Under the pieces are notes generated by a model. The model saw only the letters and a program-made list of their open reading frames with translations. It had not been told where the DNA came from and searched no databases. Positions 1,797 to 19,140 of a stretch of DNA of 64,000 nucleotides are shown in pieces. The translations under genes were made by a program, and so were the position numbers. The stretch comes from an uncultured Rikenellaceae bacterium (GTDB taxonomy: Bacteria > Bacteroidota > Bacteroidia > Bacteroidales > VadinHA17), in the NCBI GenBank assembly GCA_963770745.1, contig CAVYRA010000001.1, forward strand, positions 24,832 through 88,831, read 5' to 3'. How positions within the stretch are numbered: position 1 is the stretch's first letter; each line of letters begins with the position of its first letter.

Positions 1797-1984
1797 GGTG
1801 TGTCCTGAACCAGGAATAATTCCGTTGATCAGTCAAAAGAAGTCCTGAATTCATCTCAAATATAGATTTTTCAGAGAATAAAAAAAACTGCGGATGTCGG
1901 GTATCAACACCGTGTATAAAGATGGAAAGGATACCATTCTTGTTATATTGCCCTTTTCTGTTTTCTTTTAAAACTTCTTATTAA

Positions 1985-3308: not shown

Positions 3309-3427
3309 GCAGGAAGTGGAGTCTGCACTTCGCTTCCCGCAATAACCCAATTCTAAACCCAATCTATATTTGACCGGTGAATTATGCCCGTGACTGGCAT
3401 ACGTTTCAACTTTCTTACAGGCCGGTC
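3309..3427 (-). ncRNA. Putative structured RNA element, type 1, copy 1
   Basis: GACCGG...CACCGGTC outer stem enclosing a TATGCC/GGCATA hairpin, then GGTTTAGAATTGGGTTA and a terminator-like hairpin with a GCAG loop. Homologous to 7141-7257 and 11426-11546. Confidence 0.6.
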
Positions 3428-3436
3428 CTTAATAGC

Positions 3437-4861
3437 TTATTTTTCCCGTAGCGATTTCATCGCTTCCCTCATTTCTGTAAGGTTGTCAACAATGGTTTCA
3501 CCAAAGGGAGCTTCGGAATAATTGACGCCAAACCCGGTAATTATATTGTTTTCACCGTAATCCTGAACACTTTCTCCGAGATTGCCTCCGACTATGGTCC
3601 AGTTTCTGGTCCCCAAATCAAGCAAAACGGTAGCATTGGAATATGAGGTATTGGAAAAGTTATTGCCAAGCATGAGTCCGTTTTCGTTAAATACAGAGGC
3701 CCCTCTGAAAATTCTGACTCCCCACAATCCTGTGCCGGTAAACCTGTTATTGCGTATCACCATCCCTGACATATTTATACAACCCATGCCTGTAAATGCA
3801 TTATTGCTCATATTGAACCGGTTATTTTTAACCTGAACAGCCATGGATAATTCATCAGGAAAAAATATGCGACGGTTGTCATTTATCAGCATTCCTCCGC
3901 GACCTCCTGAAATGTTGAATTCATTCCGTTCAATCCTGTAAACTGACTGGAAAGACTGCGGCACCTGCTCAAGACGTTCCGGCCAGGGTGCACTGTATAT
4001 CTCCAGTCCAAACCCTGTGCCTGCAGGATTAAAGAAAATATTGTCTTCTACCTGTACTTTTACGCTGGTATTATGCCAGATGCCAAGACTCCTATAGGGA
4101 TTATTCTCAAATACATTTCCATTCTGGCGGGTACCTGCAATGATACTTCCTTCCTTTATCATCATGATACATGCCCCATACCAGCCACCTCCGCTGAAGT
4201 AACTGTTTGTAACGGAAATATCAATATTGGAAAGCGGGGTGATAAATCCCGCCCTCAGCTTTGAATCAGAACCTGTCATTAAGCCGTAGCCAACATTTTC
4301 AGGTTTTCCGATAATCTCCACATTGTCAACAACCACATTAATGTACCTGTTTTCCGGCTCGTAGTATTCAGAAAAACCGAAGAATCCAACCAGTCCTTCA
4401 AGCCAGTCGCGGTCTCCGGTGCTTAATGCTCCGGGAGGAGTGGTGAGTGTCATCCCGCTCATGGTGACATTGCCGCCTACAAACTTCAGCAGAACGGGAT
4501 TAAGGTTCCGGGTGTCCACTTCATCAATGCTGAGGTCGTCAATCGTTGTGACAACAGTTATGCCTTTTCCTGCACCTTTCAATAACCCGCAGAAATCACG
4601 AACTTCAATCAAATCAACATGAAATTCACCAGCCGTCAGCCGGACTTCATTACCAGGGCCGTAGCTCATTGCTTCAGCAAAGGCATGTACAAGATTATCT
4701 GTATCATCACCACCACTAGGGGAGATGATAATAACCTCGTGTGCAGCCTCCTTGCCTTTCAGGTCGACACCTGAATAATCGTCGTCGATATCCGTCGTGC
4801 TGCACGAAAACAGCAGGCAAAGGAATGACGTAAGCAGAATAGAAATCTTAATTGTCTTCAT
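3437..4861 (-). CDS. Lipoprotein with parallel beta-helix repeats (distant paralog of 1985-3232)
   Basis: Likely start ATG at 4861 (MKTIKISILLTSFLCLLFS-C). DDTDNLVHAFAEA...EVRLTAGEF, LKGAGKGITVV and many I-x-N-N-x-F repeats. Confidence 0.7.
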   Translation of the reverse strand: MKTIKISILLTSFLCLLFSCSTTDIDDDYSGVDLKGKEAAHEVIIISPSGGDDTDNLVHAFAEAMSYGPGNEVRLTAGEFHVDLIEVRDFCGLLKGAGKGITVVTTIDDLSIDEVDTRNLNPVLLKFVGGNVTMSGMTLTTPPGALSTGDRDWLEGLVGFFGFSEYYEPENRYINVVVDNVEIIGKPENVGYGLMTGSDSKLRAGFITPLSNIDISVTNSYFSGGGWYGACIMMIKEGSIIAGTRQNGNVFENNPYRSLGIWHNTSVKVQVEDNIFFNPAGTGFGLEIYSAPWPERLEQVPQSFQSVYRIERNEFNISGGRGGMLINDNRRIFFPDELSMAVQVKNNRFNMSNNAFTGMGCINMSGMVIRNNRFTGTGLWGVRIFRGASVFNENGLMLGNNFSNTSYSNATVLLDLGTRNWTIVGGNLGESVQDYGENNIITGFGVNYSEAPFGETIVDNLTEMREAMKSLREK

Positions 4862-5043
4862 GATCATACCGTTTATGTTAGACTTTGGAAAAACACCTCG
4901 TTTGTCCGGTAAAGTTCCCAAAGAATAACAGGCATTACTTATCAATGTCGTATGACAAAGTATAATACCTGTGGAAATCCTTTTAAATTATGTTTCAGTT
5001 ATGCAAATTTTGGAAGGCAGGCCTTTTTCAGAGGCTTCCCTGA

Positions 5044-6999
5044 CTATCTGGCCGGCCTGTTATTGTATGGGGTGAGGCCTATTTTATCGACTATTGCCTG
5101 GAACCGCGGATCATCGCGCAAAATGTCAAAATCAGGATTTGTGGCTAACAGATCGAAATAAGCATGACGTTTCAGTTTCTGTTCCAGGTTTCTCTCGAGC
5201 CAGTAAATAGAGTTTTCCTTATCGCCAAGGATTGCGTACCACCATGAAGTAAAGAACGGATGCCCGCTCAGGCCGAAAACAGGTATTGGCCTAGTGATAT
5301 TGGTCTCGGTCATCCATGTAAACAATCCTTCTATACCTGTATTCCGATAAGCTTCGGATATCTCTTCAACAGAATTTACGGCATCAGGGGAAGTGCGTAC
5401 GATCTGCTGAAGCGACTCTGTTGCCTTCTCTCCATCTCCAAGTTTGGCATAGTTAAGAAAAAAGAGCCAGTCGTTGAAGAGATAACCCTGATGCAGATCC
5501 CTGGCGGTCTGACAGGCTTGTATTGCCGCACGGTGTTTGCCTTCGAAATAATAAACGTAGGCATTCAGGTTATGCAGGATCCAGAAGTGAGGTTCAAGCT
5601 TAAGGGCACGGTCGAGAAATATGCGGGTCTCCTCTATTGGACCGACAATCATAAGCAACTGGGCATAGTACTGGTTGGCTATCGCATAATCCGGTTTCAG
5701 CTTAAGGGCGGTGAGGAGTTCTTTCCGGGCTTCCTCAAACTGGCGATCGCCCCAGCCATGATAGGCGCCAAGGACAGTATGGGCTTCAGCACAATCATGA
5801 TCTAAATCAATAGCTTTTAAACTAAATTCTTTCGCTTTCAGGAACCCGTCCTTTGTCGGATACCATCCATAGGCGGAGAGATCAAACCATGCCTGCGCCA
5901 TACCTGCATAAGCCTCTGTGAAATCCGGATCAGAGGCAACAGCCTTTTCAAAATATTGGATACTTCCCATCAGGCCTTCCCTATCTATGTGTGTACGCTG
6001 TTCATTGATGGATCTGTGAAGCAGGAACCGGCCCCGTAAGTAGAAGTCGTAGGCTTCAGGTTTCTGCGTGGGCAGTTCTTTCATCTGCCTGATTTCACTG
6101 TCAGAAATCGCTGCATTAAGGTTGTATGCCACCTGGAGGGCTATTTCGCCCTGAACTCCGAGAATATTGGTAAGCTTACGGTCAAAATTTTCAGACCAGA
6201 TGTGCTGATCACGCTGAGCATCGATGAGCTGAACGCTTATCCTGACCATATCCCCTTCCTGGCGTATGCTGCCCTCCAGTACATTGCGGGCATCTACCTG
6301 CCGCGCTATTTCTTCGGCAGTAAGGTCTGTATCGCGGTAGTGTTCCGAAGTAGTACGGGATATCACCCTTAAATCACTGATATGATACAGGTTATTCAGA
6401 ATATCCTCCATAATTCCATCAGCAAAATACTGGTTATCAGGATTATTACTGAAGTTATTAAACGGCAGGATTACAATCGATTGTTCTTTTGATTTCAGAA
6501 TGCCTGAGTTGAAAAAGAAGAATACCAGCGCAGCAATAGCGGCAGCAAAAAACGATATTATTATGTAAAACTTACGGGGTGACCAATTAATGGCCACCCT
6601 TTTTTCTTCAGATTTAGTCTCTTCTGCGTCTGTTGTGTATCCCTCTTCCTCTTCGGGTATGATCATCTTCTTCACCTCCCCCGGAGTATACCCGTAATAC
6701 TCATGAAAGCACTTCGTGAAATATGCCGGACTTCCAAATCCCACTTTATAGGCTACCTCGGAAGCAGTGCCCAGATTTTGCTGAAGCATCTCAAGAGCTT
6801 TTTTCAGGCGTATCTCCCTGATATACTGACTTGCATTCTGTTTTTTCAGATGCTTCAGCTTTTTGTGAATGGAGGATCGGCTGATACCGGCCTCCCTGGC
6901 TAACTCCTCAACATCAAATTCCTCTCTCGACAGGTTGGCCTCTACAATCGTCTTAAGTTTATGAATAAATTGCTGATCCGTTGAAAGTGGGTCGGTCAT
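5044..6999 (-). CDS. Membrane-anchored AraC-family regulator with TolB_N-like and TPR sensor domains
   Basis: Likely start MTDPLSTDQ at 6999. N-terminal AraC HTH (EVAYKVGFGSPAYFTKCF), one TM segment, SIVILPFNN...YFADGIMEDIL...LRVISRTT TolB_N-like domain, then TPR repeats. Confidence 0.82.
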   Translation of the reverse strand: MTDPLSTDQQFIHKLKTIVEANLSREEFDVEELAREAGISRSSIHKKLKHLKKQNASQYIREIRLKKALEMLQQNLGTASEVAYKVGFGSPAYFTKCFHEYYGYTPGEVKKMIIPEEEEGYTTDAEETKSEEKRVAINWSPRKFYIIISFFAAAIAALVFFFFNSGILKSKEQSIVILPFNNFSNNPDNQYFADGIMEDILNNLYHISDLRVISRTTSEHYRDTDLTAEEIARQVDARNVLEGSIRQEGDMVRISVQLIDAQRDQHIWSENFDRKLTNILGVQGEIALQVAYNLNAAISDSEIRQMKELPTQKPEAYDFYLRGRFLLHRSINEQRTHIDREGLMGSIQYFEKAVASDPDFTEAYAGMAQAWFDLSAYGWYPTKDGFLKAKEFSLKAIDLDHDCAEAHTVLGAYHGWGDRQFEEARKELLTALKLKPDYAIANQYYAQLLMIVGPIEETRIFLDRALKLEPHFWILHNLNAYVYYFEGKHRAAIQACQTARDLHQGYLFNDWLFFLNYAKLGDGEKATESLQQIVRTSPDAVNSVEEISEAYRNTGIEGLFTWMTETNITRPIPVFGLSGHPFFTSWWYAILGDKENSIYWLERNLEQKLKRHAYFDLLATNPDFDILRDDPRFQAIVDKIGLTPYNNRPAR

Positions 7000-7010
7000 G
7001 CCGGTTATTT

Positions 7011-7049
7011 TCAATAAGTGTAATTTACGAAATTCCTGTGAATAAGTCA
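7011..7049 (-). promoter_or_regulatory. Promoter region shared by the two AraC-TPR paralogs
   Basis: 35/39 identical to 10633-10671. Minus strand reads TGACTTATT...CGTAAATTACAC just upstream of the ATG. Confidence 0.6.
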
Positions 7050-7073
7050 GGATTCCATGAGGTGCATATTATA

Positions 7074-7102
7074 GGAGGAGTAAAGCCGAAGTCTCACTCC
7101 CC
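7074..7102 (-). terminator. Hairpin homologous to the terminator of the type-2 RNA element
   Basis: Minus strand GGGGAGTGAGACTTCGGCTTTACTCCTCC; compare GGGGAGTGAGGCTACGGCTTCACTCCTCC at 11650-11678. Confidence 0.6.
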
Positions 7103-7140
7103 AATGCCCCGAAAATCATTTATAAAGGTCCTGAAATGAA

Positions 7141-7257
7141 GAAGTGAAGCCTGCACTTCACTCCCTGAAATAACCCAATTCTAAACCTATTCGTGTAGAT
7201 GACCGGTGAACTATGCCCGTGGCTGGCATAATTTTTCTGCTTTCTCCCAGGCCGGTC
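7141..7257 (-). ncRNA. Putative structured RNA element, type 1, copy 2
   Basis: Same stems and motifs as copies 1 and 3. Lies in the 3' region of the 139-aa secreted-protein gene. Confidence 0.62.
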
Positions 7258-7280
7258 GGTGGTATGTCAAAGGAAAAGGC

Positions 7281-7700
7281 TCAATTACAGACAACTTTCC
7301 CAATAGTTATCTCTTTTGTCCAATAGCTGTAGGTCAGGGTGCCGATATAGTGTGTACCCCGGTCTCCGATCAGGTTATAGTGCCAGGTCACATACCAGTG
7401 ATCCGTAAAATAATACTTGTCTGTCTCCCTTACCTGAAAGACCTCGCCTGTCTGGCTTGTTACTTCACCCTTAAGCTGATCAATTTCGTAATACTTTCCC
7501 CCGCTGGGAACCACATAATGTACTCTTATCGAGCCGCCTTCGAGCAGATCAACCATCGTGTCACCGCAATAGACCGGTGACCAGTATTCAGACATTAACC
7601 ATCCCTGTACTGCCTTTTGAGCCTTTCCCTGGCCGTAGGCACTTGTCAGGGCCACGCCAATGATTAGGCATAAGCTAATAAAAATTGTTTTCGTTCTCAT
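7281..7700 (-). CDS. Hypothetical secreted protein
   Basis: 139 aa, Sec signal peptide ending SAYG-Q (Gln at +1 is common in Bacteroidota). Beta-rich, Tyr/Trp-rich mature part. Has its own promoter. Confidence 0.75.
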   Translation of the reverse strand: MRTKTIFISLCLIIGVALTSAYGQGKAQKAVQGWLMSEYWSPVYCGDTMVDLLEGGSIRVHYVVPSGGKYYEIDQLKGEVTSQTGEVFQVRETDKYYFTDHWYVTWHYNLIGDRGTHYIGTLTYSYWTKEITIGKVVCN

Positions 7701-7725
7701 GATTATCAGGTATTAGTAATTAATG

Positions 7726-7794
7726 GCAAGTTAGGCACACCATATGAAAGACATTTGACTCTGCGTTCCAAAATCTTTGCACTGCGTACCAAAA
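7726..7794 (-). promoter_or_regulatory. Class A promoter: CTAACTTGC box plus two TGCGTnCCAAAA direct repeats 21 bp apart
   Basis: Same motifs and spacing as 11563-11631, and within 1 bp of the spacing at 11780-11838. Confidence 0.65.
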
Positions 7795-7835
7795 ATTAAA
7801 TTATTGACTACTGTTGTTGAATACATATCCTCTCT

Positions 7836-8441
7836 CTATTGGTTGCCCTTTACCAGGGTGATTGTACCTCTCCAGTGATGAAACGAATTATCAGGATAGG
7901 AATCCCTGTTGTAATCATCGGTATAACCACTTCCTGTGGCTCCCTCAAACCTGCCTGTGCCACCAAGGATTACAAAGGGATCTTTGAAGTATGAGTTTAC
8001 GTCTGCAGGATGATGGTCAAGCCTTCCGTTAAGGACCTGGCCAGCACATGATACATAGAGAATATCTCCGTTGGCAGCTGTGAAAAAAGCTACCATGTGA
8101 CCAGTCGGTCCAGGATAAATGCCAGACATGAATTCACAACAGAATTCAAAATAATGGGTAAACTTACCAAGATGGGTCCCCGTTCCGCCGCCTTCATTGA
8201 TCACCATGCCCCACATGACACCGCCTTCGGGATTCCATTCACCGCAGGTGGCCTCCGGCCCGCCATACATATAGGTTCCTACAAAATCCGCCTTGAACGG
8301 CACCGTGACCGCTTTTTGTTCAGCCTTTCCTTTCTTAAGGCTGACATCCGTATCATTATCAAAATAAGTGTCAGATTTTGAACATGACATTGAAAAGCAG
8401 ACAACTGCCGTCAAAAGAAAGGTTTTTTTCAGTGTTTTCAT
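7836..8441 (-). CDS. Hypothetical lipoprotein (beta-barrel-like; ILGGTGRFEGATGSG motif)
   Basis: Likely start at 8441 (MKTLKKTFLLTAVVCFSMS-C). The GGTGRFEGATG motif recalls dirigent/allene-oxide-cyclase-like barrels. Confidence 0.72.
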   Translation of the reverse strand: MKTLKKTFLLTAVVCFSMSCSKSDTYFDNDTDVSLKKGKAEQKAVTVPFKADFVGTYMYGGPEATCGEWNPEGGVMWGMVINEGGGTGTHLGKFTHYFEFCCEFMSGIYPGPTGHMVAFFTAANGDILYVSCAGQVLNGRLDHHPADVNSYFKDPFVILGGTGRFEGATGSGYTDDYNRDSYPDNSFHHWRGTITLVKGNQ

Positions 8442-8492
8442 AAGCATATGTTTTAGTTTAGCATCAGAAATCTCCTTATCAAGATTCTTATA

Positions 8493-8525
8493 CAAAGTTC
8501 AGCAAAATGAGGAGTGACTGCATAG
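8493..8525 (-). promoter_or_regulatory. Class B promoter CTATGCAG-N17-GAACTTTG
   Basis: Identical 8+8 bp blocks with an identical 17-bp spacer also occur at 11246-11278. Confidence 0.55.
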
Positions 8526-8662
8526 AACTATCCGTGCCATTGATTTAAACAGTGATGCAGGTATTTAAACTATGTTGCACAGGAATGCAACAACACAATC
8601 TTTATAGGATTTTTGGAATGGAGATCAACTGCCGGTAACACTTTCTGCGGTCAGCTGTCGCT

Positions 8663-10621
8663 TTACCCGGGGGGCCTGGTGTTGTAGGGAGTAAGACCCG
8701 CTTTCTCAATGACCGCAAGGAACCGGGGGTCATCTCGCAGGATATCAAAATCAGGATTGGTGGCAATGAGGTTGAAGTAGTGTTTGGGAATAAAAGACAT
8801 TTCAATGGTCTTCTCAAACCACCTGATCGACTCCTCCCTGTTGCCCAGAATGGCATTCCACCATGCAACGAAGAACGGATGCCCGGTCAGACCGTCTACA
8901 GGGATAGGCCTGTTAATATTTATGTCTATAAGCCATGTAAATATTCCATCAATACCTGATTTACGGAATGCATCCATCACCTCATCTCCAAGGTGACTGA
9001 CAGAGGGATAACGCTTAAATAAGTCGTGCAGTGCTATTGCCGCTTTCTCCCCCTCGCCCAGCCTGACATAATGAAGAGCAAACAGCCAGCTGTTGTCAAC
9101 GAAATCAGGATTAAGGTCGCGGGCTGCAATGCAGGCTTCGATTCCCTTCTCATATTCCTCTTCGAAGTAGTAGATCCAGGCATTCAGGTTATGTACCACC
9201 CAGAAATATGGTTCGAGTTCCACAGCACGGTCAACATGTTTCCGTGCATCTTTAATAGGACCTGTAATCATCAGTAGCTGTGCATACCATTGATGTGCCG
9301 TGGAATAATTCGGGTTCAGCTCAATGGCTCTTCCTACCTCTGTTTTGGCCTCTTCAAATTTTCCTTCAGGATATGCCAACCATACGCCCCTTAATGCATG
9401 AGCCTCCGCGCAATCGGGATCAAGCTCCAACGCTCTGGTGAAATTCTCCCTGGCCCTTGCAATACCATCCTGATAAGGTTTGTACCAGCCCCATGCCGAA
9501 AGATTGTACCATGCATTGGCCAGCCCGGCATATGCTTCGGCAAATGTCGAGTCTTCGGCAATCGCCATCTCATAGTACTTCAGGCTGGCCATGAGTCCCT
9601 CCCTGCTGATGTCAAAACGCTGGATATCATTTGCCTGATGAAGCAAAAAGCGGGCCCTGAGATAATAATCCCATGCTTTCGGATTCGCTGTCGGAAGTTC
9701 CCCTATATGACTGGCTTCACTGTCTGTAATGATTGCATTCAGTTTTCCCGCAACCTGCTTTGCAATCTCACCTTGAAGACCGAGCATATCGGTCAGCTCA
9801 CGGTCGTAATTTTCCGACCAGAGATGCTGCTCCTTCTTCCCGTCAATAAGCTGTACTGTTATTCTGACCTTATCGTCCTGCCTTCGAACGCTGCCCTCAA
9901 GAACATTTCGGGCATTTAATTGCCTCGATATCTCTCCTGATGTGAGGTCAGTGTCACGAAAATGCTCTGAGGTTGTACGGGAGATCACCCTCAGATTGCT
10001 GACCTGGTAGAGACTGTTAAGGATATCCTCCATAATGCCGTCAGCAAAATACTGATTGTCAGGATCCCCGCTGAGATTCTTAAAGGGTAGGACCACGATT
10101 GAATTCTCCTTTGACATTCGCATCGGACTAATTGCAACCACAAGAATAATGGCAGCAACAGCAACAGCGAGAGCTGACAGAGCCAGTATTTTTTTCCTTT
10201 TTAACCCAGGATCTGCGGCTGCAGGCTGGTGACTCTCAGACTCGCCTGGCAAGATATCCGGTTTATCTGTCTCATCCTCAAAAATCCGTTTCCTCTCTTC
10301 CCCCGGAGGATAACCGAAATATTCATGAAAACACTTCGAGAAGTATGCCGGACTGCCGAAGCCCACTCTGAATGCCACTTCAGATGCAGTCATGAACTCG
10401 TCACGAAGCATCTCCTGTGCATTCTGCAGGCGGATCTCCCTGATAAATTGACTCGCATTCAGCTTAACCAGATGCTTCAGCCTGCGGTGAATAGCAGACC
10501 GGCTCATGTGTGCTTCCCGGGCAAGCTCCTCAACATTAAATTCCTCTCGTGACAGGTTAATCTCTACTATCTCCCTGAGCTTGCGAATAAATTTCTGATC
10601 TGTTGAAGGCGGGTCAGTCAT
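8663..10621 (-). CDS. Membrane-anchored AraC-family regulator with TolB_N-like and TPR sensor domains (paralog of 5044-6999)
   Basis: Likely start MTDPPSTDQ at 10621. AraC HTH, TM segment, SIVVLPFKNL...YFADGIMEDIL, TPRs, and shared C-terminus ATNPDFDILRDDPRF. Confidence 0.82.
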   Translation of the reverse strand: MTDPPSTDQKFIRKLREIVEINLSREEFNVEELAREAHMSRSAIHRRLKHLVKLNASQFIREIRLQNAQEMLRDEFMTASEVAFRVGFGSPAYFSKCFHEYFGYPPGEERKRIFEDETDKPDILPGESESHQPAAADPGLKRKKILALSALAVAVAAIILVVAISPMRMSKENSIVVLPFKNLSGDPDNQYFADGIMEDILNSLYQVSNLRVISRTTSEHFRDTDLTSGEISRQLNARNVLEGSVRRQDDKVRITVQLIDGKKEQHLWSENYDRELTDMLGLQGEIAKQVAGKLNAIITDSEASHIGELPTANPKAWDYYLRARFLLHQANDIQRFDISREGLMASLKYYEMAIAEDSTFAEAYAGLANAWYNLSAWGWYKPYQDGIARARENFTRALELDPDCAEAHALRGVWLAYPEGKFEEAKTEVGRAIELNPNYSTAHQWYAQLLMITGPIKDARKHVDRAVELEPYFWVVHNLNAWIYYFEEEYEKGIEACIAARDLNPDFVDNSWLFALHYVRLGEGEKAAIALHDLFKRYPSVSHLGDEVMDAFRKSGIDGIFTWLIDININRPIPVDGLTGHPFFVAWWNAILGNREESIRWFEKTIEMSFIPKHYFNLIATNPDFDILRDDPRFLAVIEKAGLTPYNTRPPG

Positions 10622-10695
10622 GCGGGTTCTTCTCAATATGTGTAATTTACGAAATTCCCGGCAATAAGTCAATTCTCTCCTTTTCGGCAAAACTT

Positions 10696-10805
10696 AAAAC
10701 GAAAAAGAGTACCGCATGAACGGGACTGTTTCGCTGGTGCCCGGAAACTAACTAAAGCGCTCACACATGAAAACAATCCTCTCTCCTCGCCCGGGCAACA
10801 GTTAA
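10696..10805 (-). ncRNA. Putative structured RNA, type 3, in the 3' region of the 128-aa gene
   Basis: TGCCCGG/CCGGGCA stem enclosing GATTGTTTTCAT...TTTAGTTAGTTT, followed by an imperfect hairpin and a T-run. Confidence 0.4.
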
Positions 10806-10816
10806 GTCTTTTGAAA

Positions 10817-11203
10817 CTACCATTCAGCTATGGTAGCGATGACGCCGGTCTGGCAGATTAACATGTCAAGAGTATGCGAATCCTTGTTTACATTGCAGTT
10901 TGAGCAGACTTTTGGTGTATTCCCCTGAAGGAAAGCAACCTCGTCATCCCATAGTGAAAAAATGACACTCTCTGCCTGGCATAAATCGAGGCCGTGACCC
11001 AGGCACCCGTCATACCTCATGGAGAGCTGTGCAGGTTCTTTGAATACAATAAGGGGCTCAATTACAATAGTCTTCAAAGCAAAGTTGTTCCCGGACTTGT
11101 TGATCAATTCATGGGCATCGAACCTGACCCGATCGGTAAATGCACCTGCCAGTATCACCACCAGTGGAAGCATAATCTCCTTCAAAACATCCATTCGTTT
11201 CAT
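10817..11203 (-). CDS. Hypothetical protein
   Basis: 128 aa, ATG start, N-terminal hydrophobic stretch, class B promoter upstream. No recognised family. Confidence 0.5.
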   Translation of the reverse strand: MKRMDVLKEIMLPLVVILAGAFTDRVRFDAHELINKSGNNFALKTIVIEPLIVFKEPAQLSMRYDGCLGHGLDLCQAESVIFSLWDDEVAFLQGNTPKVCSNCNVNKDSHTLDMLICQTGVIATIAEW

Positions 11204-11245
11204 AATTCCATTGATTAGTTTGACCTTTGAAACCTGTTGATTTCA

Positions 11246-11278
11246 CAAAGTTCGTTCAGGAGAATGTGTGCTGCATAG
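11246..11278 (-). promoter_or_regulatory. Class B promoter CTATGCAG-N17-GAACTTTG
   Basis: Matches 8493-8525. Confidence 0.55.
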
Positions 11279-11425
11279 CAATATTTCCACTAATAGTTTA
11301 TTTTTCATGTCATTCATTTAATTTATGTTTCTATTAACTATATATTATTATCATATATGAAGATATTACCATATAATAATCAGATTTTAATGTAAAATAA
11401 GAAAATCCTGAAGGTGTTCCGAAAC

Positions 11426-11546
11426 ATAAAAGAAGTGGAGCCTGCACTCCACTTTCATTGATAACCTAATTGTAAACCTATTGAGCAGATGACCGGTGAA
11501 CTATGCCCGTGGCGGGCATATTGAGCTTCTTTCTCCCAGGCCGGTC
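11426..11546 (-). ncRNA. Putative structured RNA element, type 1, copy 3 (free-standing)
   Basis: Starts ~17 nt downstream of a class A promoter box and ends in GAAAGTGGAGT-GCAG-GCTCCACTTCTTTT. No sizeable credible ORF in between. Confidence 0.68.
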
Positions 11547-11562
11547 TGATATTGTGAGTAAG

Positions 11563-11631
11563 GCAAGTTAGGCACAAAGTCTGAAAGGCATTTGACTCTG
11601 CGTCCCAAAATCTTTTCTATGCGTGCCAAAA
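11563..11631 (-). promoter_or_regulatory. Class A promoter driving type-1 RNA copy 3
   Basis: GCAAGTTAG starts 37 nt before GCGT, as at 7726. TGCGTCCCAAAA (11599) and TGCGTGCCAAAA (11620) are 21 bp apart. Confidence 0.65.
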
Positions 11632-11643
11632 CAGCTTTATAGT

Positions 11644-11775
11644 AAAAACGGAGGAGTGAAGCCGTAGCCTCACTCCCCAAAGTACCCGGTATTAATACAT
11701 GACCGGTAACGGTTCTGCTTGAAACCCCCTTTCCCGGGCACTTAATACGGTCACTGCGAGGTCTATGAGATATTC
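11644..11775 (-). ncRNA. Putative structured RNA element, type 2
   Basis: Lies between the class A box at 11780 and a strong terminator (GGGGAGTGAGGC-TACG-GCTTCACTCCTCC-GTTTTT). Its TGACCG...ACCGGTCAT outer stem resembles that of type 1. Confidence 0.55.
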
Positions 11776-11817
11776 TTACGCAAGTTAGAGTACATGACAC
11801 GAGATCCGTTTTGCTCA

Positions 11818-11980
11818 GCGTGCCAAATACTATGCCCTATGTGCCAGTATCATTGCTGTACGTGCCAAAATTATTGCTGTGCGTGCCAAATACTATGCCC
11901 TATGTGCCAAAATTATTGCTGTGCGTGCCAAATACCATGCCGGATGTGCCAATATTATTGCTGTGTATGCCAAAATCATC
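11818..11980. repeat. Tandem array of 8 x 21-bp units with core RYGTGCCAAA
   Basis: Units start at 11818, 11839, 11860, 11881, 11902, 11923, 11944 and 11965 (last one partial). Two unit types: gcgtgccaaatactatgccct and aygtgccaaaattattgctgt. Confidence 0.95.
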
Positions 11981-11981
11981 A

Positions 11982-14150
11982 CTATCTGACAGTACCGCTC
12001 GGGTTAACCCCGAATTCACGCTTATAAACCCTGCTGAAATGAGAGACATTCCTGAAACCGGTCTTGTATGCCGCCTCTGCCACCGTAAGCCTGTGTCCTG
12101 CCAGAAGCTCCTGGGCCCTGTGCAGCCTCAGCGAGCGAAGATATTCAGTCACTGTCCTGTTGGTCAGCGATCTGAACTTTCGGTAAAGCTGCGTGCGGCT
12201 CATCGACATCTGATCACAGATATGCTGGATATCAAGATTTTCATTACCCATGGCCGCAAGCATAATCTCACGTACTTTCCTCATGAAGGCATCCTCTATG
12301 TTAAAATCCCTCTCCTCAATAAGATCGAGATTACCGATCGCTGCATACCGCTCCTGCAGTCTTTTGCGCTGACTGATAAGGGCTCTGAGCTGCGCCTGTA
12401 GCTCCACATTGTTGAACGGTTTCGCAAGATAGGCATCGGCCCCCCTCTCAAGTCCGTTTACTCTTGATGCCACATCTGCCCTGGCAGTAAGTACAACTAC
12501 CGGTATATGGCTTGTCAGCGGGTTCTGCTTTACCCTTCCGAGCATCTCGATGCCATCCATCACAGGCATCATTATGTCTGTAAGGATGAGGTCAGGAATA
12601 TAATCGATGGCTTTTGCAACGCCCTCCTCTCCATCGCCTGCAACAATGACATCATAATCATTGACAAGGAGACTCATCAGATAATGAACAACATCATGAT
12701 TATCCTCAACAACCAGCAACATGGGTTTTTCACTGTGGAAATCAGGATGGGTCTCACTCCGTGCCTCCCTACCTTTTGTACTGTAAATATAATGTGAGAT
12801 TTTCCCTTTGATCTCGTGAAGTCCAGGACCTGTCTGAAGTTCAGCAGATTGAGTTACCGGCAGGGTTACGACAAACTCTGTTCCGCTGCCATAGACACTC
12901 TCGACGCCAATAGAACCTCCGAGGAGAGTCACAACCTCCTTTGTCAGCGCGAGTCCCAGACCGGATCCAGGCGTAATATTCGTCGAGTAAGCGTCACCAC
13001 GGGAAAAACGGTCAAAAATATGCGGCAGAAAGTACTCCGGGATACCTGAACCGTTATCACTTACCCTGATCTCATAATGAGTCTCACTAATTGCGGTACT
13101 TACCTCTATCTTCCCGGTTTGCTGGGTGAACTTGAGAGCATTGGAAATGAGATTTGTGACAATCTGCATCAGCTTTTCAGGGTCATAGTCAATTACAGGG
13201 GCGGGTTCGCATGGTTTGTAATTGAGTGAGATTCTTGCCGTTGCCGCAACTGACCTGAACAGTTCTAATATATACCTGATATAGATATTTATATCTGCCC
13301 TTATCAGACGGACCGGTGTGGCCCCTGCTTCAAGCTTAGAGAGATCGAGCATCTGGTTAACCAGTGTCAGCAAAACCTTTGCATTCCTGTCAATAGCTTC
13401 AGAACCTTCTGTGAGCCATCTCTCCGGTTCCTTGCGGATCAGATCATTCATTCCCGTTATGACGGTCAGCGGTGTCCGGAACTCATGGGTGATGTTGGTG
13501 TAGAGACGAGTCCGAGCCTCATCAATCTCCCTTATCCGTTCGGTCTCACTCTTCTCGAGCTTAACACGCTGAACAATAAAGCTCATCACGAAGACCATCG
13601 CAAAGGTTGATATCCATATGAGATTCACAACATAGAGTGAGATGTTGACTTCAGTGGTCATTTCCGGCGGCACCTCGAGATACGGATTAAGAACACCCGC
13701 AAGAATAATTGTAATCACATAAACATAATATATCCACAGTGAATGCCTTCTTTTTTTGAAGTTGAGAGAGAAGAAAATCATTGCAAGTCCGACAACCACA
13801 AGGCCACCTGAATAGGGTATTCCTCCAAGCAATAGTATGGTTACGAATGTGGCAAGCGCCACGATGGTCTGATTAATGACCAGAAGCACCAACCCGGTCC
13901 TTCGTAATATTAACGGGTATATTACTCCCTGCAGAAATACTAGCGACAGGGAAAACCCATAGGTTATCAGGATCTTTAGCTGGGGGAATATGATGTGATA
14001 AGCAAGCGTCAGCAAAAAAATCATGACAGTGACAGCAACACTGGCAATCCAGTAGATCTTTTTCTGGGCCAGGCCGTCTTTATCAAGGGAGGGATGATAA
14101 AGAATCCTTGAAATCCAATTGTCTGCTTTTAAGAGAAAGGGGGTAGCCAT
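11982..14150 (-). CDS. Hybrid two-component regulator (membrane sensor, histidine kinase, receiver, AraC HTH)
   Basis: ~6 TM N-terminus, NITHEFRTPL H-box, NLISNALKF, DNGSGI, GSGLGL, receiver (VEDN, LTDIMMP, YLAKPF) and C-terminal AraC HTH. Confidence 0.92.
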   Translation of the reverse strand: MATPFLLKADNWISRILYHPSLDKDGLAQKKIYWIASVAVTVMIFLLTLAYHIIFPQLKILITYGFSLSLVFLQGVIYPLILRRTGLVLLVINQTIVALATFVTILLLGGIPYSGGLVVVGLAMIFFSLNFKKRRHSLWIYYVYVITIILAGVLNPYLEVPPEMTTEVNISLYVVNLIWISTFAMVFVMSFIVQRVKLEKSETERIREIDEARTRLYTNITHEFRTPLTVITGMNDLIRKEPERWLTEGSEAIDRNAKVLLTLVNQMLDLSKLEAGATPVRLIRADINIYIRYILELFRSVAATARISLNYKPCEPAPVIDYDPEKLMQIVTNLISNALKFTQQTGKIEVSTAISETHYEIRVSDNGSGIPEYFLPHIFDRFSRGDAYSTNITPGSGLGLALTKEVVTLLGGSIGVESVYGSGTEFVVTLPVTQSAELQTGPGLHEIKGKISHYIYSTKGREARSETHPDFHSEKPMLLVVEDNHDVVHYLMSLLVNDYDVIVAGDGEEGVAKAIDYIPDLILTDIMMPVMDGIEMLGRVKQNPLTSHIPVVVLTARADVASRVNGLERGADAYLAKPFNNVELQAQLRALISQRKRLQERYAAIGNLDLIEERDFNIEDAFMRKVREIMLAAMGNENLDIQHICDQMSMSRTQLYRKFRSLTNRTVTEYLRSLRLHRAQELLAGHRLTVAEAAYKTGFRNVSHFSRVYKREFGVNPSGTVR

Positions 14151-18801: not shown

Positions 18802-19140
18802 TTAGTGATCACAATAGTTTGCCCCGGCCTGCAGCTTATCGTTAAGCAGGTCCGTTGCCAGTTCATCCGGACTTTTCACCGGTGCGCCGACAAAAACATT
18901 GATCTTATGGCTGTTAAAAAGGCCTATTGCCCTCTGTCCCATGCCACCTGCTATTACGTCAGTCACGCCTTTTTCTGCCAGCCATCCGGGAAGCAGTCCC
19001 GGTTCGTGAGGCGGGGGTGTGATGAGTGATTCTTCAGTGATGGCGTTGCCTTCGGCGTCCATTATCGCGAACTGTTCGCAATGGCCGAAATGTGAACAAA
19101 GGATCCCTCCCTCAAGAGGAATTGCTATACGTTTTTTCAT
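18802..19140 (-). CDS. NifB/NifX-family (FeMo-co binding-like) protein
   Basis: HFGHCEQF, PPHEPGLLP and IAGGMG motifs; C-terminal NYCDH. Confidence 0.85.
   Translation of the reverse strand: MKKRIAIPLEGGILCSHFGHCEQFAIMDAEGNAITEESLITPPPHEPGLLPGWLAEKGVTDVIAGGMGQRAIGLFNSHKINVFVGAPVKSPDELATDLLNDKLQAGANYCDH

Follow-up and report, generated by a model that had tools for sequence, protein, structure and literature searches.

A structured RNA element repeated within one variable locus of an uncultured Rikenellaceae genus

Why should a segment of about 120 nucleotides (nt) occur three times within 8 kb, always on the same strand and between genes that are unrelated to one another? The question is raised by a 64,000-nucleotide stretch of DNA from an uncultured Rikenellaceae bacterium (assembly GCA_963770745.1, contig CAVYRA010000001.1, positions 24,832 to 88,831), referred to below as the window and numbered from its first letter. 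A first-pass annotation had marked three minus-strand copies of an RNA-like motif of about 118 nt and had offered two explanations: a multicopy small RNA (sRNA) family with one independent member and two members derived from 3' untranslated regions (3'-UTRs), or a cis-acting attenuator or riboswitch. The comparisons described here indicate that the element is real and represents a previously undescribed family of structured RNAs, though one whose general kind is known. The reading that is favored, at somewhat better than an even chance, is an sRNA family with dual biogenesis that would act in trans through a module made of a linker and a hairpin, either by pairing or by protein binding. Nearly all that is known of RNA regulators in the Bacteroidota comes from a few cultured Bacteroides of the gut, and the new family belongs to an uncultured environmental genus of the Rikenellaceae.

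Three copies with a common fold on one strand

The copies, and the genes that precede two of them, are the following.

3309-3427, minus strand: RNA element copy 1, in a 3'-UTR position behind the beta-helix gene (502 aa); of the three terminal hairpins, its own is the weakest
7138-7257, minus strand: RNA element copy 2, in a 3'-UTR position behind the 139-aa secreted-protein gene
11426-11546, minus strand: RNA element copy 3, which stands alone behind a promoter-like module of its own; CTTTTATGTTT follows its hairpin
3437-4945, minus strand: 502-aa open reading frame (ORF) that hosts copy 1; it matches a right-handed beta-helix weakly
7281-7700, minus strand: 139-aa ORF that hosts copy 2; it carries a signal peptide at the N terminus and belongs to no Pfam or NCBIfam family

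All three copies were found where they had been annotated, with the single adjustment that the hairpin of copy 2 extends to approximately 7138. Aligned over about 120 nt, the copies have a mean column identity of 82-86%, and the alignment contains each of the motifs listed in the first-pass annotation, namely GACCGG-CCTG, a purine-rich stretch, TATGCC...GGCATA, TTCACCGGTCA, GGTTTA(G/C)AATT(G/A)GGTTAT and a hairpin with a GCAG loop. A BLASTN search of the whole 3,412,252-base assembly with copy 2 as the query returned these three places only, with identities of 100, 84 and 82% and E-values of 6e-62, 4e-29 and 3e-25. A covariance model built from the three window copies (R1) scored them at 134.6-140.6 bits (E ≤1.5e-26, whole assembly) and found one other match in the assembly, on a different contig, at 21.3 bits and an E-value of 0.2.

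A fold was calculated from 27 sequences that were aligned with MAFFT, without fitting to the model, and submitted to RNAalifold. The same three helices were obtained as in the model: a stem P1 of 6 pairs, a stem P2 of 6 pairs and a terminal hairpin of 12 pairs. A large internal loop, asymmetric in shape, is closed by P1 (RRCCGG/CCGGYY) and encloses P2 (UAUGCC/GGCAUA, loop xxCCAcg); its near-invariant bases are CCUGGGAG-AAG along one side and UCA along the opposite side. The terminal hairpin presents an invariant GCAG loop and is followed by a U-rich tail. Near-invariance among unpaired bases extends to CCUGGGAG-AAG, the CCA of the P2 loop, the UCA ahead of the P1 return strand and the GCAG loop. 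The linker that joins the 5' domain to the last hairpin is unpaired, GU-rich (GGUUUAGAAUUGGGUUA) and more variable than these loop bases.

Covariation was counted in a model-based alignment of 73 matches (48 distinct), with the qualification that the alignments used (A5 and A8) are fitted to the model and that the related genomes from which they are drawn are not independent. Across the 48 distinct sequences, standard pairs occupy 96.2% of 1133 cells, compared to 33-47% when the partner is slid by 1-3 columns. Double-sided changes are present in 10 of the 24 pairs versus 5.7±1.1 in shuffled alignments, a number that none of 500 shuffles reached. They include the first pair of P1 (G-C to A-U in seven sequences), the pair at the base of P2 (U-A to C-G or G-C in 12 sequences) and two positions of the hairpin (A-U to G-C, 11 sequences each), and the top mutual-information pairs fall within the helices. 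The compensatory change that had been noticed in the last stem, GTGAAG/CTTCAC versus GTGGAG/CTCCAC, is real, and covariation among the homologues supports the fold as a whole. No convincing pseudoknot emerged from the mutual-information scan, which pointed beyond the helices only to a possible seventh pair of P2 (columns 29-50). An additional helix inside the purine-rich loop (CUG/..AG) was paired in only 63.5% of cases and was removed from the model.

The strand can also be assigned. Cells with G·U number 124 versus 12 with A·C, and pairing falls from 96.2% on the minus strand to 86.2% on the opposite strand. From this excess and this drop, the selected molecule is the RNA of the window's minus strand. 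A reading as a small peptide was considered and set aside: the AUG in P2 is missing in loci L042 and L059, one-base gaps lie inside the frame in L021, L036, L066 and L061, and the window copies would stop after 13-23 codons at differing places.

The same observations bear on a DNA-level explanation, in which the repeat would be a recombination site or the remnant of a mobile element that shuffles gene cassettes and the RNA structure would be incidental. Direct repeats do punctuate a locus in which gene content and copy number vary among species, and the copies are positioned at gene ends as cassette sites would be. This explanation is nevertheless hardly credible, since selection on RNA is indicated by the G·U excess of one strand and by the compensatory changes, the element is asymmetric with two separate hairpin domains and forms no imperfect palindrome, and the copies are confined to one locus, an 8-kb stretch, with none elsewhere in 3.41 Mb. 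There is no transposase or integrase among the classified flanking ORFs, no search having been aimed at them. REP/MITE-type intergenic repeats occur as many dispersed copies. The element resembles them as a short structured repeat between co-oriented genes and differs from them in having three copies in one locus and a sequence-specific conservation across species that includes compensatory changes. An insertion sequence (IS) end, MITE or REP would be expected to show many dispersed copies, terminal inverted repeats or an associated transposase; the genes on the flanks here encode regulators, secreted proteins and a transporter. With three copies in one locus and no others, an IS end or a dispersed repeat does not fit.

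Distribution and arrangement at gene ends

The first-pass annotation had not recognized the element as a known family and had proposed a search with the Rfam covariance models. In that search, no family of Rfam 15 reached its gathering threshold anywhere in the whole window, and at E ≤10 only chance-level fragments of 8.5-19.9 bits fell on the copies. The copies are unmatched at gathering and permissive thresholds alike, as had been suspected. No paper that joins Rikenellaceae, sRNA and terminator was found in the literature, and among the matches listed for surveys of Bacteroidota structured RNAs, none concerns this element by its title and abstract.

Within the genus, R1 found 1-3 copies in 20 of 36 other genomes; in 24 genomes from 24 other families of the order, it found one weak match (29 bits). 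A second covariance model (R2) was built from 27 sequences and run on 150 genomes drawn from the family. The element was present in 28 of the 39 genomes of the genus, 25 of them with strong matches, and the 111 genomes of 19 other genera yielded no strong match and three weak ones (E 3e-4 to 6e-4). When the draws for R1 and R2 are combined, a strong copy is carried by 33 of 55 distinct other genomes of the genus. An exact-pattern search through GTDB, with each species represented by one genome, gave 43 loci, 38 of which lie in metagenome-assembled genomes (MAGs) labelled Bacteroidales, Bacteroidetes, Rikenellaceae or Rikenella. The model confirmed all 38 of these and none of the five from other phyla; the latter (L055, L067, L068, L069 and L074) are chance pattern matches. 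Since loci from the pattern scan are confirmed only in MAGs on the Bacteroidales side, the genus is an uncultured Rikenellaceae lineage. Among the genomes scanned, strong matches to the element were found in this one genus and nowhere else.

The position of the copies relative to genes was assessed by strict rules for 49 distinct copies with enough flanking sequence. Twenty-one start no more than 30 nt after the stop codon of a long co-oriented ORF, and 16 sit behind a promoter-like module composed of repeats and a box. Both arrangements are represented in the window. Copies 1 and 2 had been described as beginning shortly after stop codons, which is correct for both; the distances are corrected to 9 nt past the TAA at 3437-3439 and 23 nt past the TGA at 7281-7283, respectively. 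Each of the two ends in the sole hairpin ahead of the next gene. As had been noted, the terminator of copy 1 is the weakest: its last hairpin contains two internal mismatches and is missed by a terminator scan that detects those of copies 2 and 3.

The module consists of two TTGGNAC repeats 21 bp apart, and a box, CTAACTTGC, that starts approximately 37 bp after the start of the second repeat. Its occurrences in the window are the following.

11563-11629, minus strand: promoter-like module of copy 3, with repeats at 11602-11629 and box CTAACTTGC at 11563-11571
7726-7792, minus strand: promoter-like module ahead of the 139-aa gene, the message of which would include copy 2, with repeats at 7765-7792 and the box at 7726-7734
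11780-11979, minus strand: tandem array of about seven 21-bp TTGGCAC repeats with a CTAACTTGC box after it at 11780-11788, directly past the gene of a hybrid kinase and ahead of a second RNA-like unit, M'

For copy 3, a promoter of its own had been proposed; the module is present upstream, with a box that ends 16 nt ahead of P1, and the same module also stands ahead of protein genes. The ATG of the 139-aa gene, at 7700, follows its box by 25 nt. The module could be aligned between eight cases upstream of the RNA and four upstream of an ORF, and in all four of the latter an ATG follows the box. The window contains three CTAACTTGC boxes versus 0.42 expected, all of which follow repeats spaced by 21 bp, and six repeat pairs with this spacing versus 0.01 expected. 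In several species the order is module, RNA, module, ORF, and the RNA unit there stands alone. From its position and conservation, the module reads as an activator-dependent promoter. A sigma-54 reading of the TGGCAC...TTGC pattern was ruled out by the spacing.

The same repeat pair was observed elsewhere in the genome ahead of three more genes (G000:C6:24608, C6:26043 and C14:19743), whose products begin with what resembles a signal peptide. In these three cases GAACTTT, and no CTAACTTGC box, comes after the pair. The three genes suggest a small regulon of one AraC-type regulator.

The element is always found in one variable locus, on the same strand as its neighbors. The usual order begins with a divergent S9 peptidase, a 722-aa hybrid protein with kinase, receiver and AraC-HTH parts, and one or two AraC-HTH + TPR proteins. 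A variable set of genes follows. The 139-aa, 173-aa-like and 219-aa proteins that it encodes start with a signal or lipoprotein leader; its other products are beta-helix proteins of approximately 490 aa, a PD40/peptidase-like protein of 1030 aa and an alpha/beta hydrolase. The order ends with the element, a PutP-like sodium/solute symporter and a convergent ORF of 335-337 aa that is RecA where checked.

Cis or trans action

The gene that follows the element bears most directly on the second explanation of the first-pass annotation. A riboswitch or protein-dependent attenuator would bind a ligand or protein through its 5' domain and thereby set read-through into the next gene, typically that of the PutP-like symporter. 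The element does have the look of an aptamer joined to a terminator, the bases of its internal loop are highly conserved, and a UUCAC beside P1 could pair with the GUGAA of the 5' arm of the terminator. The symporter is the next gene in 15 of 38 mapped loci. In 6 of the 38, the next gene is instead the convergent 335-337 aa ORF, which abuts or overlaps the 3' end of the element (RecA in L047), and in two the symporter lies upstream. Further loci have yet other genes as the next one. TAnnTTTG is the promoter consensus of the Bacteroidota, and a box of this type, together with a conserved leader hairpin, lies between the element and the symporter ATG. The alternative pairing is limited to the 5-bp UUCAC/GUGAA option and showed no covariation in the mutual-information scan, and there were no matches to Rfam riboswitches. 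While a riboswitch aptamer with an intrinsic terminator shares with the element a conserved multi-stem 5' domain, invariant unpaired bases and a terminator hairpin, the element differs in its position at gene ends or as a stand-alone unit, in the convergent genes found downstream in some species and in belonging to no Rfam class. With a downstream gene that varies and is sometimes convergent, and a symporter that appears to be promoted separately, a leader role for one gene family does not fit, and the attenuator or riboswitch is disfavored as very unlikely.

Two features of the symporter leader were recorded. A conserved box, TATATTTG, lies upstream of the PutP-like symporter gene at window positions 1797-1865 (minus strand) and at the matching place in 15 related loci. 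The leader hairpin (GAATTCAGG...CCTGrwTC) is conserved ahead of the ATG and could be a leader element in its own right.

The main rival to a trans-acting sRNA is a purely cis-acting 3'-end element with no trans function, in which the hairpin would terminate transcription and the 5' domain would protect the upstream message from 3' exonucleases, or the whole would insulate tightly packed co-oriented units. Such a role is unlikely, though to be taken seriously. The genes whose stop codons closely precede a copy are unrelated to one another (beta-helix, 139-aa, 173-aa-like and the 1030-aa PD40/peptidase), the element often stands between a gene and the symporter, which is separately promoted, or borders the 3' end of convergent recA, and the target scans described below gave no trans target, all of which would be expected of a cis element. 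However, the copies behind a promoter-like module have no ORF between module and RNA, and in the order module, RNA, module, ORF there is nothing upstream to stabilize. The stand-alone units, and this order above all, argue against a purely cis role. In addition, the near-invariant unpaired bases and the invariant hairpin loop exceed the needs of a terminator or stabilizer, and the same GU-rich linker and terminator recur in stand-alone sRNA-like genes.

An sRNA family with dual biogenesis is the preferred reading. Under this proposal, for which transcription, RNA ends, trans action and partners are all predicted, each copy would encode a structured small RNA of about 120 nt that runs from P1 through the end of the last hairpin. 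The RNA could be produced by two routes: from its own activator-type promoter, as may be the case for copy 3, or as the last part of a messenger RNA (mRNA) from the same locus, as may be the case for copies 1 and 2. The terminal hairpin and the U-rich tail would end the transcript in either case. The linker and terminator hairpin would then serve as a shared platform, to pair with C/A-rich mRNA leaders or to hold an RNA-binding protein, and the 5' domain would be the family-specific part. The division into one independent copy and two 3'-UTR copies that was proposed for the window recurs across species, as the counts of copies behind modules and behind stop codons demonstrate; the trans-acting role stays a prediction from sequence. 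If correct, the family would illustrate clearly how a single RNA can arise by two routes, from its own gene or as the tail of several unrelated messages, apparently under one shared type of regulated promoter.

Several observations weigh against this reading. When the three linkers were scanned for duplexes with 2777 crude start regions, the top matches differed from copy to copy and were unremarkable. The complement of a 17-mer of the linker had 9 non-self matches at ≤3 mismatches, compared to an estimated 8 or so by chance, and 2 of the 9 are in a 5'-UTR-like position versus 3 for a same-sense control. The linker is also the least conserved part of the RNA, which is unusual for a seed. With respect to arrangement, 12 of the 49 copies fall under neither strict rule. 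The link to the putative regulators of the locus is loose: an orthologue of the hybrid kinase or of the AraC-TPR protein is present in 26 of 34 genomes that carry the RNA and in 9 of 22 that do not, these related genomes not being independent, and 8 genomes have the RNA and neither regulator at the thresholds used. The best single complement to the linker (15 of 17 positions) lies 14 nt upstream of a 332-aa ORF at G000:C1:193101 and is without comparative support.

A variant of the trans-acting sRNA, judged quite improbable, would make the RNA a sensor. Its invariant 5' internal-loop domain would bind a small molecule or protein tied to a locus of peptidase and proline-symporter-like genes, and the GU-rich linker would be released for action or kept from it according to this binding. 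The linker and GCAG hairpin, which recur in at least two other sRNA-like genes, would dock a general RNA-binding protein of the lineage. Were this true, the linker-GCAG module would be a counterpart of the Hfq-binding module of proteobacterial sRNAs.

The preferred dual-biogenesis reading may be compared with described systems. The enterobacterial CpxQ and SroC are 3'-UTR-derived sRNAs that share the terminator of a coding message and would thus be made whenever the gene is transcribed. Copies 1 and 2 resemble them in lying at the 3' end of a coding message and sharing its terminator. Unlike CpxQ and SroC, the element is joined to several unrelated genes, and it exists in addition as a gene of its own with a promoter of the same type.

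Among described systems, the FopS/GibS sRNA network of Bacteroides thetaiotaomicron comes nearest, in a comparison made by its published features. FopS/GibS is a multicopy sRNA family composed mostly of stand-alone genes with one 3'-UTR-derived member; the RNAs act on translation start regions and have a single-stranded region that is bound by an RNA-binding protein (PMC11697453). The FopS RNAs are approximately 65-70 nt in length, carry a conserved R1 seed at the 5' end, have canonical promoters and are conserved in the Bacteroidaceae (PMC11697453). By these features, the element is likewise a multicopy Bacteroidota family with stand-alone members and members in 3'-UTR positions. In contrast to FopS, it measures about 120 nt, its 5' domain is structured and begins with a paired stem, and its conserved single-stranded stretch is internal. 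Further differences from the described FopS RNAs are the repeat-bearing, activator-type module ahead of the stand-alone copies and the confinement of strong matches to one Rikenellaceae genus.

Putative regulators and other RNA-like units

Two proteins of the locus are candidates for its regulation.

11982-14150, minus strand: hybrid histidine kinase, receiver and AraC-type HTH protein, 722 aa
8663-10690, minus strand: AraC-HTH + TPR protein, 675 aa, with a paralogue at 5044-7014 (57% identity)

The 722-aa protein may regulate the repeat-bearing promoters, and the AraC-HTH + TPR protein is a second candidate regulator. As a putative operator, the 21-bp repeat would provide a testable regulon for these adjacent AraC-type regulators. 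Strict co-occurrence of the RNA with either protein was considered and is not borne out by the genome counts given above. Orthologues of the hybrid kinase were found with 5-11 in-frame stops at G142:C10:1088590-1090704, G197:C1:24260-26428 and G008:C1:168226-169839; the gene is apparently decaying in some species where the RNA persists (G142 and G008). Within the coding region of the AraC-TPR protein, positions 8835-8904 (minus strand) gave a match to the Rfam family DUF2693-FD with 24.5 bits versus a gathering threshold of 44.5 (E 0.069), which is probably due to chance.

RNA-like units other than the studied element were found in the window and beyond it.

11640-11775, minus strand: second structured RNA-like unit, M', in which a GC-rich hairpin and a T run come after a long-range stem (AAGUGCCC/GGGUACUU); 23.5 bits to the model
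G000:C14, approximately 241450-241560 (L092), and loci L034, L035 and L084-L091: RNA-like unit M2
G000:C9, approximately 18960-19075: third intergenic unit, from a pattern scan of the genome, with AUAGGUUAGGUUAGUUUUAGGGUUA, a strong hairpin and a T run

M' folds with a z-score of -2.85, and a unit like it comes after the main element in L042, L049 and L026. The weak matches that the model returned in many genomes, including some that are without the element, belong to the different unit M2, which combines another hairpin at its 5' side with a GGUUAG-rich linker (GAUUUAGGUUAGUUUUGGGUUAGG) and ends in a terminator whose loop is GGCAGAG. Neither M' nor M2 has an Rfam match. M2 is mostly found directly past the stop codon of a conserved gene, and in the window's own genome it lies behind a TAnnTTTG-type box. 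From these resemblances, the GU-rich linker and terminator hairpin look like a common platform of several sRNA-like genes of the genus, while the P1/P2 domain is specific to the studied element. The linker and hairpin that these candidate sRNAs have in common could serve as a handle for finding the RNA-binding partner of the lineage.

Lastly, a GC-rich hairpin, GGGGAGTGAGACTTCGGCTTTACTCCTCC, is located downstream of copy 2 at positions 7068-7100 (minus strand). It resembles the terminator of M' at 11651-11678 and may be the remnant of an M' unit.

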